From assembly GCF_000446015.1 (NCBI RefSeq), contig NC_022093.1, positions 930,001-962,000 of the forward strand: a stretch of 32,000 nucleotides of DNA, read 5' to 3'. Of the stretch, positions 6,025-9,249 are shown one piece after another (positions within the stretch are counted from its first letter, which is position 1; each line of letters starts with the position of its first letter). This stretch comes from Thermofilum adornatum (lineage in GTDB: Archaea > Thermoproteota > Thermoprotei > Thermofilales > Thermofilaceae). The notes beneath the pieces are model-generated. The model saw nothing but the letters and a program-made list of their open reading frames with translations. It did no database searches and had not been told where the DNA came from. The translations under genes and the position numbers were made by a program.

Positions 6025-6282
6025 ATGCGTGAATACTTCAATAAACTCCTCTGGGACAAGACAGTAGACAAGAAACAGGTCAAAGTAAAATTCGTGTCTA
6101 GAGGAACATCTACGCAAACAGACATGTTTACTGGAGAACAAGTTGTCCGGGTCTCACGCGACGGAGTAATTATACTCACAGAAAGCGGTACAGAAAAATA
6201 TATTCCCTACCACAGGATACTCGAGATAACATACTCGGGAAAAACAGTATTTAACAAAAAAGAAGAAAAATATTTTGTTTAG
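6025..6282 (+). CDS. UPF0248/DUF504-family small protein
   Basis: MREYFNKLLWD...KYIPYHRILEI matches my recollection of the archaeal DUF504 pattern (N-terminal L/INKLKWD and C-terminal IPxHRI). The start is taken at the ATG at 6025 rather than the listed 5956. Confidence 0.55.
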   Translation: MREYFNKLLWDKTVDKKQVKVKFVSRGTSTQTDMFTGEQVVRVSRDGVIILTESGTEKYIPYHRILEITYSGKTVFNKKEEKYFV

Positions 6283-7316
6283 ATACCCTTCTCGGCCATG
6301 TAGAGCAAAAGATCCACGAGACGGTTGCTGAAGCCCCACTCGTTGTCGTACCAAGCTACGACTTTTACCTTGTTGCTCTTCCCACCAAGCACCATGCTTG
6401 CCTGCGCGTCATATATCGAGGAGTGCGGGTCCCCCACGATGTCCGAGGAGACTATCGGGTCATCCACGTATTCAAGTATTCCCTTCAAGTAGGTCTCAGA
6501 AGCCTCTTTAAAAGCCGCATCTAGCTCCTCCTTTGTAACCTCTCTGCCTAGCTGAGCAACCAGATCAACAACAGAGCCGTCAGCCACAGGTACACGCATA
6601 GCCATTCCGTCCAGCTTACCCTTCACCTCAGGAATCACTAGGTGCAATGCCCTAGCTGCTCCAGTCGTTGTAGGTATAATATTTAGTGCAGCTGCACGCG
6701 TCCTCCTAAAGTCTTCTGGATGTATTAAGTCTAGGATCCTCTGGTCATTGGTATAAGCGTGGACCGTGGTCATGAATCCCCATTCGAGACCAAAGTTTTT
6801 GAGGAGAACATATACAACTGGCGCTAGACAGTTAGTAGTGCATGATGCATTTGAGATGACTTGGTGTTTCGTTGGGTCGTACATGTGGTGGTTTACTCCC
6901 ATCACGATTGTGACGTCTGCGCCTTTCGAGGGGGCGGTTACGACAACCTTCTTGGCACCGGCTTTGAGGTGAAGAGCGGCCTTGTCTCTATCGGTGAATC
7001 TGCCAGTAGCCTCCATTGCTATGTCTACTCCTAGATCTTTCCAGGGTAACTTGTCGGGGCTAGCTTCATTCAGAATGAGCATCTCGTGTCCTTCTACTAT
7101 GAGCTTGTTGTCCTTGACTTCTACTTTGTACGGGAGACGTCCAAAGACAGAGTCGTATTTAAATAGGTAGGCCAGCATCTGGGGAGAGCCTAGGTCGTTA
7201 ATTGCTACAACCTCAAATTTGTCGAAGAATTTTTCGTTTTTCAGAGCTGCCCGTAAAAAGTTCCTGCCAATTCTTCCAAAACCATTTAGTCCAACCTTTA
7301 TGGTCATACTGGTCAC
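6279..7316 (-). CDS. gap: Glyceraldehyde-3-phosphate dehydrogenase, type I (bacterial/eukaryotic type)
   Basis: N-terminal Rossmann motif VGLNGFGRIGRNFLRA, catalytic site SNASCTTNCLAP and C-terminal WYDNEWGFSNR. The start may instead be the ATG at 7307 (MTIKVG...). Confidence 0.9.
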   Translation of the reverse strand: MTSMTIKVGLNGFGRIGRNFLRAALKNEKFFDKFEVVAINDLGSPQMLAYLFKYDSVFGRLPYKVEVKDNKLIVEGHEMLILNEASPDKLPWKDLGVDIAMEATGRFTDRDKAALHLKAGAKKVVVTAPSKGADVTIVMGVNHHMYDPTKHQVISNASCTTNCLAPVVYVLLKNFGLEWGFMTTVHAYTNDQRILDLIHPEDFRRTRAAALNIIPTTTGAARALHLVIPEVKGKLDGMAMRVPVADGSVVDLVAQLGREVTKEELDAAFKEASETYLKGILEYVDDPIVSSDIVGDPHSSIYDAQASMVLGGKSNKVKVVAWYDNEWGFSNRLVDLLLYMAEKGI

Positions 7317-7413: not shown

Positions 7414-7468
7414 GTATCAGACCTGCACGAGCTCTTCACATATCTGTCCTTCCGAGCGTCATCATTAC
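7414..7468 (-). ncRNA. C/D box sRNA (dual guide)
   Basis: The reverse strand reads GUA-AUGAUGA-CGCUCGGAAGGA-CAGA-UAU-GUGAAGA-GCUCGUGCAGGU-CUGA-UAC. The parts are C box (7465-7459), 12-nt guide, D' variant, 3-nt spacer, C' variant, 12-nt guide, D box (7420-7417) and a 3-bp terminal stem GUA/UAC. This is the canonical archaeal 12-nt spacing. No ORF covers the region. Confidence 0.8.
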
Positions 7469-7490
7469 AAAAAACCTAGTCATGCCCACA

Positions 7491-7498
7491 AATATAAA
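7491..7498 (-). promoter_or_regulatory. TATA box (TTTATATT) for the C/D box sRNA
   Basis: The reverse strand reads GAAGTTTATATTTGTGGGCATGACTAGGTTTTTTGTA followed by the C box. The TATA ends 25 nt before the C box, which predicts a TSS just upstream of the terminal stem. Confidence 0.5.
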
Positions 7499-7568
7499 CT
7501 TCATGGTTCTAGCCACGTAATATTTAATTATCATTTATCACGAGCTTCTGCGAAACTCAGGGCTATAA

Positions 7569-7589
7569 AAGCCTTAATTCTTTAGGCTT
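7569..7589. terminator. Symmetric hairpin (AAGCCU-9 nt-AGGCUU) followed by a U-run, downstream of the tRNA
   Basis: There is a 6-bp inverted repeat at 7569-7574 and 7584-7589. On the minus strand it is followed by UUUUAU. A T-rich tract (AUUUUGUUG) also directly follows the tRNA CCA end. Confidence 0.25.
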
Positions 7590-7621
7590 AATTCCCGAAG
7601 ACTCCCCTATGCAACAAAATA

Positions 7622-7731
7622 TGGTGCCCCGGCCGGGATTTGAACCCGGGATCTTCGGCTCGAGAGGCCGATATCCTTGCGGCCTTGCATCTTCCAGCTC
7701 GTGCAGGTTGACCGGGCTAGACGACCGGGGC
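7622..7731 (-). tRNA. tRNA-Glu(CUC), 110 nt with encoded CCA, interrupted by a 31-nt non-canonical intron in the D-loop/D-stem junction
   Basis: Hand fold: acceptor GCCCCGG/CCGGGGC with discriminator A and CCA; T arm CCGGG-UUCAAAU-CCCGG; anticodon arm UCGGC-CUCUCGA-GCCGA (anticodon CUC at 7664-7662). The D stem GUCU pairs with GGAU only after 31 nt are removed. The exon sequence closely resembles crenarchaeal tRNA-Glu as I remember it (UAGCCCGGUCAA, CUNUCGAGCC). Confidence 0.85.
7677..7707 (-). other. tRNA intron (31 nt; the register is ambiguous by up to 3 nt because CAA is repeated at both junctions)
   Basis: The intron is CCUGCACGAGCUGGAAGAUGCAAGGCCGCAA. Removing it restores an 11-nt D loop AGCCCGGUCAA and the D stem. 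It has an internal hairpin CCUGCA/UGCA(A)GG. I could not fold a canonical bulge-helix-bulge by eye. Confidence 0.65.
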
Positions 7732-7827: not shown

Positions 7828-9249
7828 GTGCATTTTTTAGCTTGTCTCAGGGCTGGGAAGCCTTTTTTCTCTGAAAAAGGTTTTCTTTTGTTCAAGCAAA
7901 GGTTTTATAATTTCAGGCCTGTTAAGTCCTTGTCTACGCTTGGCGAGCAGGTGAATTGGGAAGTGGCAAGGATACGTTTCCTGGCTATATCGGATGTCCA
8001 CGGCAAAGAGGATCTGGTGGACAAGTTCCTAGAGTGGGTGCAGAAAGAAAACTTGGCATATGACTTCATAGTGGCAGCCGGTGATATTGGGAACCCGCAG
8101 CGCGCTGGAAGCATGTGCAGAATTCTACGAAAGATTTCTTTAACACTTAAGAAGAACGTCTACTATGTTAAGGGTAATTGGGACATTGAAGGGACATGTG
8201 GAGACAAGAGTGTTTTGGATCTAGACGATACTGGTCCGCTGATTTTTGGCAACATTGCACTCATTGGCCACGGAAGAATAGCTGAGCCCTACGAGATACC
8301 AAGCACAGTTAGGGTATCAGTCCTAGTCACTCATTATCCTCCTTTCAGCATCCTTGACAGGGGGAAAGTGATAGACAGCAATCATAGGTCTCTCCATGCG
8401 GGAGTCATTGATATTAACTATCTCATTGACTACTACAAGCCACGGGTACACATTTTTGGGCACAGCCACAGCTTCGGAGGGCTTGATGTCGAACACAATG
8501 GGGTCGTCTATGTAAATGTGGCCAGGCTTGACAGATTGCTGAAGAATGGAGAGTCTATTGGAAACTATGCAATAATAGATGTTTCTGATACGGGAGAAGT
8601 AAAAGTCGAATGGAGATTTATCAATGGCGCCTGGAAAAAATGTACAAGCTGTGGCCGAATAGTTCACATACCAGACAAATGGTCTCTATGCCGCAAATGT
8701 GCACACCGCACAGAACTAAAGTTCGCCAGGATCACTGGGGTACCATACGTTGCAAAGCTTATATTCAGAGACCTGACAAGTGGTCTACAAGTTGCATCCC
8801 CACAGGTAAAAATACCTTTCCACACGCTTAAGGACTACTCGACGTACGAGGAGTTCCTCGATGCATTGGTGCTCAGAGAGGCGAGAAACATGCTTTCAAG
8901 CGATAATTCGAGAGTAGTCGAGGTTCCCAAAGATAAGGTCCTTGAATTCTATAACCAAGTAAACAATAAAAGAATGACTCCCTTCAGCGAATATCTCTTC
9001 GCATGCAATGATAAAGTTAGTGGAAAGCAGTTATGCCTAGTTATGCGTGTGTTTTCCGCAGATAAGAGGGCACATGTGCTATGGAAAATAAAAGAGGATT
9101 CAGAGACAGGTAAAAGAACCCTTGAACAATACATACTCTTTAAGAACGAGCCTGCACAAGCGTTAAACTTCTTAGTAAGCCAGCTAGCCGAGTCTGGATT
9201 CAAGGTTTTAACATATAGCCTAGAGCCTGTCCAGCATGTCCAACAATAA
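7828..9249 (+). CDS. Calcineurin-like metallophosphoesterase fused to a Zn-ribbon and an uncharacterised ~175-aa C-terminal domain
   Basis: The metallophosphoesterase motifs appear in order: AISDVHG, AAGDIGN, VKGNWD, LVTHYPP and IFGHSHS. They are followed by CTSCGRIVHIPDKWSLCRKC (a C4 ribbon) and then a domain with no motif I recognise. The start is uncertain: GTG at 7828 as listed, with GTG candidates at 7951 and 7963. A TATA-like TTTAAAAA lies at 7786-7793. Confidence 0.7.
   Translation: MHFLACLRAGKPFFSEKGFLLFKQRFYNFRPVKSLSTLGEQVNWEVARIRFLAISDVHGKEDLVDKFLEWVQKENLAYDFIVAAGDIGNPQRAGSMCRILRKISLTLKKNVYYVKGNWDIEGTCGDKSVLDLDDTGPLIFGNIALIGHGRIAEPYEIPSTVRVSVLVTHYPPFSILDRGKVIDSNHRSLHAGVIDINYLIDYYKPRVHIFGHSHSFGGLDVEHNGVVYVNVARLDRLLKNGESIGNYAIIDVSDTGEVKVEWRFINGAWKKCTSCGRIVHIPDKWSLCRKCAHRTELKFARITGVPYVAKLIFRDLTSGLQVASPQVKIPFHTLKDYSTYEEFLDALVLREARNMLSSDNSRVVEVPKDKVLEFYNQVNNKRMTPFSEYLFACNDKVSGKQLCLVMRVFSADKRAHVLWKIKEDSETGKRTLEQYILFKNEPAQALNFLVSQLAESGFKVLTYSLEPVQHVQQ

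Follow-up and report, generated by a model that had tools for sequence, protein, structure and literature searches.

A stand-alone box C/D sRNA of Thermofilum adornatum predicted to guide wobble U34 methylation of tRNA-Glu(UUC) and to pair with tRNA-Glu D-loop introns

The genome of Thermofilum adornatum (1,750,259 bp, 46.5% GC) carries a box C/D sRNA gene whose two guides are predicted to converge on tRNA-Glu. The D' guide very probably pairs with positions 31-40 of tRNA-Glu(UUC) and directs 2'-O-methylation of the wobble uridine, U34. The D guide, in this lineage, likely pairs with a motif in the introns of both tRNA-Glu precursors. Taken as a whole, U34 methylation of tRNA-Glu(UUC) combined with intron docking by the D guide is the explanation that we favor, at somewhat better than even confidence. 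The wobble-guide part alone is ordinary, wobble guides being already known. The less ordinary part is the second arm, which appears to match an intron and to have reached it through a traceable switch from tRNA-Leu.

The sRNA locus and its surroundings

The window, meaning the whole 32,000-nucleotide stretch analyzed (positions 930,001 to 962,000 of NC_022093.1), holds the sRNA gene about 155 nt downstream of a tRNA-Glu(CUC) gene on the same strand. The sRNA outline and its boxes were read from the sequence, and the following features are given in window coordinates.

6279..7316, minus strand: gap, the type I GAPDH gene, a neighbor of the sRNA conserved across many relatives
7414..7468, minus strand: box C/D sRNA, 55 nt, with a 3-bp terminal stem GUA/UAC
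7417..7420, minus strand: box D, CUGA
7421..7432, minus strand: D guide, 12 nt, with C7425 at +5
7433..7439, minus strand: box C', GUGAAGA
7443..7446, minus strand: box D', CAGA, degenerate; orthologues have CUGA, AUGA, UUGA or CCGA in the same register
7447..7458, minus strand: D' guide, 12 nt, CGCUCGGAAGGA, with A7451 at +5 facing tRNA-Glu position 34
7459..7465, minus strand: box C, AUGAUGA
7490..7501, minus strand: TATA-like A/T-rich element about 25-30 nt 5' of the sRNA, called from sequence only
7622..7731, minus strand: pre-tRNA-Glu(CUC), mature length 79 nt, anticodon 7664-7662; missed by default ARAGORN
7658..7667, minus strand: tRNA positions 31-40 (pre-tRNA nt 65-74, intron removed), opposite the D' guide, with an A:C mismatch at C34 (7664)
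7678..7708, minus strand: non-canonical intron, 31 nt, at 20b/21, in a bulge-helix-bulge with helix CGGU/GCCG and 3-nt bulges

Boxes C, D', C' and D follow one another in the archaeal order within the usual ~50-60 nt, and the guides are 12 nt each. The terminal stem that belongs to the K-turn fold has 3 bp here; by eye, many orthologues have longer stems of other sequence, and these stems stay complementary although their sequences differ. Genes for fibrillarin, Nop5 and L7Ae-family proteins are encoded in the genome. Among the curated Rfam sRNA families, none reaches its gathering threshold for this sRNA, and the best C/D match, sR5, is weak (E=0.0007, under the gathering score). The sRNA carries every feature of C/D membership that could be tested, and in its predicted working is a canonical C/D guide.

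The TATA-like element is a possible promoter of the sRNA's own; a sigma-70 promoter scan is inapplicable to archaea. A metatranscriptome contig from a ~96% identical strain covers 7446-7711 with the intron unspliced, at a depth of 3.6, but it is possibly DNA and therefore provides no evidence of sRNA expression.

The neighboring gap gene (loci L037-L066) encodes a bacterial-type (type I) GAPDH. The GAPDH of G000 and G004 clusters with genus g9 (86% identity to G018) and not with its own genus (64-67%), which suggests gene replacement; unlike the GAPDH, the sRNA beside it follows its own genus in both genomes. An open reading frame of 473 aa on the plus strand (7828-9249) has a weak metallophosphoesterase N-terminal match and a CxxC...CxxC motif.

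The D' guide and the wobble position of tRNA-Glu

A sequence-only reading of the window had aligned the D' guide with the anticodon arm of the adjacent tRNA-Glu(CUC) and predicted that a UUC isoacceptor would pair in full. Both alignments were reproduced. Counted from +1, the guide forms eight Watson-Crick pairs (+2 to +4 and +7 to +11) and one G:U pair (+6) with the CUC arm, is mismatched at its two ends, and has the A:C mismatch exactly at +5, where it faces C34. The tRNA-Glu(UUC) gene was located ~214 kb away, at G000:C1 723441-723348, with a 15-nt intron; its arm pairs with +2 to +11 contiguously (nine Watson-Crick pairs and one G:U), placing U34 at +5. The G:U pair is a wobble pair between G7452, at +6, and U35.

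Across all tRNA loci, 16S, 23S, pre-rRNA, 5S, SRP RNA and RNase P RNA, tRNA-Glu(UUC) is the best D' target with a score of 19, followed by tRNA-Arg(UCG) at 16 and by 23S and tRNA-Glu(CUC) at 15. The rRNAs (best score 15) and 5S, SRP and RNase P RNA (11 or below) were rejected as targets, and the better rRNA match that the earlier reading had said would argue against it is absent from this set. One 17-point match falls in the upstream flank of a gene. Against a 10.4-kb stable-RNA set, 17 of 300 shuffled guides score equally well (p ~0.06), so the single-genome match taken alone is only borderline.

What is decisive for the predicted D' target, tRNA-Glu position 34, is conservation rather than this single-genome match. 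The pattern of C box, guide and D' box was matched in 66 of 120 genomes of the class (at least one of these matches, in G052, being spurious) against five matches in a reversed control. The register of the D' guide is constant in the 43 parsed orthologues. Position +5 is A, matching U34, in 41 of the 43 and G, matching C34, in the other two; G at +5 also occurs in Thermoproteaceae-like genomes, and in genera g23 and g34 the guide has exactly the C34/CUC form. The critical base thus toggles only between partners of the two Glu wobble bases. At +6, A (26 of 43) and G (17 of 43) both pair with U35, and in four orthologues an A at +2 produces an edge mismatch. Nine continuous Watson-Crick pairs, the strict rule of PMC6009581, are found in the A-form orthologues; the sRNA here passes the relaxed rule only. 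The G form at +6 is confined to one clade plus G000 and G004 on the gap tree, and its link with the intron may therefore be a single event.

A Watson-Crick pair at N+5 is reported to be essential (PMC6009581), so with A:C at this position the adjacent tRNA-Glu(CUC) should stay unmethylated by this sRNA. The proposal of a wobble-34 guide for tRNA-Glu is consequently upheld for the UUC isoacceptor, by its pairing and by the 43 orthologues, and not for the CUC isoacceptor next door. One search pattern found no separate C34 guide for tRNA-Glu(CUC) in this genome, which leaves the absence of such a guide unproven. Both Um34 and s2Um34 have been measured in crenarchaeal tRNAs (PMC7668247).

Several neighboring observations concern the same guide. 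tRNA-Gly(UCC) was rejected as the true D' target, as it has two mismatches here and its arm is independent of the A/G state of the guide. In genus g23 (L149-L157) the Glu C34 guide lies upstream of box D and not of D', which suggests guide shuffling or an independent origin. In orthologues from the same genus (L049, L053, L054, L056, L058, L062) box sequences have degenerated (D' CCGA or CCGC, D CGGA, C UGAAGA), and the activity of one half or of both may be reduced in them.

The D guide, tRNA-Leu G47 and the tRNA-Glu introns

Families without a D-loop intron in their Glu genes have conserved the same D guide. In these families it pairs at the variable-arm/T-stem junction of tRNA-Leu, with G47 at +5 and a score of 16-20 of 20, and in Pyrococcus G47 of tRNA-Leu(UAA) has been predicted as a C/D target (PMC7668247). 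The ancestral target of the D guide, as predicted from these pairings, is tRNA-Leu G47; neither this target nor the intronic position of the second site figured in the sequence-only reading. In families f1-f3, tRNA-Leu G49 has changed to C. The D guide of g6, g7 and g9 tracked tRNA-Leu, its +7 now being G and the pair with Leu C49 restored, and the D guide of g1, g2, g4, g5, g8, g10, g11 and g17 is mismatched to tRNA-Leu at +7. The five Leu tRNAs of the present genome pair along most of the D guide with one mismatch. For five g6/g9 genomes, none of the matches listed was a tRNA-borne CUUGCCCGGG target. Leu stretches of some g1 genomes were assumed to be identical to those of the listed g1 genomes.

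Related sequences occur elsewhere. Genus g34 (L141-L148, L160) has a different D guide, which by eye matches the variable arm of tRNA-Leu in antisense, with the register shifted. Near position 1500, G025 and G032 (L202, L207) have another C/D-like sRNA with a D guide ending in CCCGGCAAG, like the g9 form. Outside the window, a structured GC-rich stretch on the minus strand of G000:C1 (649560-649720) contains the CCUCUCGAGC 10-mer and an apparent permuted tRNA-iMet at its end; a permuted tRNA-iMet has been described for Thermofilum pendens (PMC3218864).

In the present lineage, C7425 (D guide +5) lies opposite intron nt 5 (G7704) of pre-tRNA-Glu(CUC) or the corresponding G in the UUC intron; alternatively it lies opposite G47 of tRNA-Leu, then with the mismatch at +7. 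The first 13 nt of the CUC intron (7708-7696) are perfectly complementary to sRNA nucleotides 7433-7421, and the 15-nt UUC intron pairs over 10 nt (eight Watson-Crick and two G:U). Because this site lies inside the intron, it exists before splicing only. The distance between the sites of the D and D' guides is 40 nt in the CUC precursor but 24 nt in the UUC precursor. The earlier claim that both guides map about 40 nt apart on one tRNA species is thus correct for the CUC precursor only, since in the UUC precursor the distance differs and the D site is intronic. That such an arrangement is typical of archaeal dual guides proved mistaken: it is rare for both guides of an sRNA to target one tRNA, and in ~80% of the sRNAs that target tRNAs one guide is an orphan (PMC6009581).

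Covariation between guide and intron was scored across relatives; pattern-search matches supplied the intron sequence of G034 and the Leu stretches. Of the 25 genomes that have the sRNA together with a D-loop intron in a Glu gene, 18 score at least 16 of 20, ten of them perfectly, and seven introns score below 16, six of these at 8 or less. Cognate guide-intron pairs average 14.96 against 13.0±0.34 for permuted pairs (0 of 20000 permutations, kinship ignored); with one genome per genus the values are 13.9 and 11.95 (p≤0.0007, uncorrected for phylogeny), and shuffled introns score 6.2. Compensatory states occur at +7 (C:G, U:A, G:C), +10 (C:G, U:A) and +3 (G:C, A:U), and the register of the intron motif is constant despite varying intron length and motif offset. 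The gap tree on which changes were placed is not a species tree, as it puts G000 and G004 with g9. Compensatory changes were accordingly counted only roughly and, kin not being independent, amount to only about 3-4 events.

Compared with the spliced tRNA, the intron makes D-guide pairing ~6-9 kcal/mol stronger at 80 C. Within this genus, the D guide usually has its better partner in the CUC intron, though the wobble base of that isoacceptor is mismatched at +5; the UUC intron scores 11-19 of 20 in relatives, which makes a dual-anchor model weakest on the isoacceptor that can be methylated. Seven g6/g7/g9 genomes keep the guide, and a matching Glu intron was not found in them; in three of the seven, one Glu gene was not recovered. 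In G025, an intron match at +8 had been predicted and failed: the D guide follows tRNA-Leu there, not the intron. On the plus strand, the antisense of the Glu D-loop exon and intron start (7696-7712; L209, L210) reads as the D guide followed by CUGA or UUGA. This stretch resembles the 3' end of the sRNA and may bear on the origin of the intron, or may be due to chance.

Proposed mechanism, alternatives and known systems

In the favored explanation, the stand-alone sRNA would load L7Ae, Nop5 and fibrillarin. Pairing of its D' guide with tRNA-Glu(UUC) would yield Um34, possibly on a further modified U, as may be inferred from PMC7668247. The pairing partner of the D guide would be a CCUGC-N-CG-R-G motif that both Glu precursors carry close to the 5' end of their D-loop introns, and an RNP docked in this way would act on precursors. 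On the UUC precursor, the D guide may serve as a second anchor, with the RNP opening the anticodon arm before splicing, a step to which we give slightly less than an even chance. The D' duplex, weakened by its G:U pair at +6, may depend on this anchor. The RNP would bind the CUC precursor as well, leaving C34 unmethylated there. The evolutionary counterpart of this mechanism, also held tentatively and just short of even confidence, is that the D guide switched from tRNA-Leu G47 to the Glu intron motif and that the intron became a co-evolving landing pad coupling U34 methylation to the unspliced state.

The alternatives overlap in part with the favored explanation. One is that the guides are independent, D' acting on U34 of tRNA-Glu(UUC) and D still acting on tRNA-Leu G47, with the likeness to the intron inherited (from a Leu-like or antisense-guide origin) and roleless. 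The outgroup families without a Glu intron pair with Leu G47 and follow Leu variants, the +7 change of g6, g7 and g9 and the guide of G025 likewise follow Leu, the Leu tRNAs here still pair along most of the guide, and the G47 prediction for Pyrococcus fits as well. Against this, the guides mismatched to Leu at +7 are mismatched right beside the target, at a position where most matching introns pair, and the g1 change at +10 weakens the Leu pair to G:U and makes intron pairing perfect; we consider independent guides unlikely. A comparably modest probability attaches to a D guide/intron duplex that works as a chaperone or splicing timer, chiefly on pre-tRNA-Glu(CUC), where the sRNP would hold the 5' end of the intron against the inner helix of the bulge-helix-bulge and no wobble methylation would follow. 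The perfect 13-bp match is indeed to the CUC intron and includes intron nt 1 in the 5' bulge, and conserved +5 mismatches have been proposed as a mark of binding without modification (PMC6009581). However, the CUC intron alone already forms a complete bulge-helix-bulge, and the Glu introns of many relatives are without a match.

The literal reading of the coordinates first proposed, in which a strong intron anchor lets the RNP tolerate the A:C mismatch and C34 of the neighboring tRNA-Glu(CUC) is methylated too, seems quite improbable. The summed duplex energy of pre-CUC is as good as that of pre-UUC (-39.8 vs -37.6 kcal/mol at 37 C) and the search for a separate C34 guide came up empty with the pattern used, but the requirement reported for +5 (PMC6009581), the G:U pair adjoining the mismatch and the G found at +5 in C34-targeting lineages all count against it. 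The G at D'+6 might extend the reach of the guide to further tRNAs in which U34 is followed by C35, for example tRNA-Arg(UCG) or tRNA-Gly(UCC). With G, tRNA-Arg(UCG) has nine Watson-Crick pairs and one mismatch, at -16.3 vs -12.5 kcal/mol with A, but it retains a G:G mismatch at +7; the Gly(UCC) arm is perfect only in A-form genomes and has two mismatches in the G-form genomes listed, and broadening of this kind is very unlikely. That the element or its match arose by chance is hardly credible: the borderline single-genome null and Rfam scores uniformly under the gathering level would permit it, but the boxes, the 12-nt guide spacing, the synteny with gap and the complementary terminal stems are conserved in 43 genomes.

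After scans of mature RNAs only, 28% of Pyrobaculum guides are without a known target (PMC6009581). A guide arm that covaries with an intron motif would offer one answer both for the tRNA introns retained in Thermofilum and its relatives and for such targetless guides. If the favored explanation is true, the non-canonical tRNA introns of Thermoproteota would gain a selected function, and some "orphan" guides would be intron-targeting. The literature searched, of which coverage was partial, contained no account of an archaeal guide that acts in trans and pairs within a tRNA intron; intron targets could not have appeared in PMC6009581, which scanned mature tRNAs only.

Pyrobaculum has several wobble guides, namely sR26, sR27, sR45, sR46 and sR51 (Lui et al. 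2018, PMC6009581), which like the sRNA here are stand-alone C/D sRNAs with +5 on position 34. sR51 is assigned to tRNA-Glu (given as 'C24Glu' where the text deals with position 34; PMC6009581), and genus g23 has a guide with the same 10-nt antisense in which +5 is G. The g23 look-alikes share only the guide with the present sRNA and have it upstream of box D, whereas the guide here lies upstream of D' and is predicted to target U34 of tRNA-Glu(UUC). The Sulfolobus Gln guide (U34/G18) likewise combines a wobble uridine with a D-loop-region site of one tRNA. There the methylations are observed and the second site lies in the mature tRNA, whereas here the second site lies inside an intron and is present in the precursor only. 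In Pyrococcus abyssi, sR47 is an experimentally shown trans-acting wobble guide for Cm34 of tRNA-Leu(CAA) (PMC5558902), and the predicted G47 target in tRNA-Leu(UAA) (PMC7668247) corresponds to the ancestral D-guide register found here; these cases concern another tRNA and lineage, and the available parts of the two sources report no intron involvement.

The intron guide of tRNA-Trp, which the sequence-only reading had cited as precedent, is a loose parallel, and stand-alone wobble guides such as Pyrobaculum sR51 (Glu) and the Sulfolobus Gln guide are closer. An intron-encoded guide of the tRNA-Trp type was rejected for this locus, where the sRNA lies outside the tRNA gene and a set of C/D boxes is absent from the 31-nt intron. 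The euryarchaeal pre-tRNA-Trp guide (Cm34 and Um39; PMC4090602, PMC7994747) likewise ties a tRNA intron to ribose methylation at the wobble position; there the intron is the guide, whereas at the present locus a separate gene encodes the guide and the intron is its predicted binding site.
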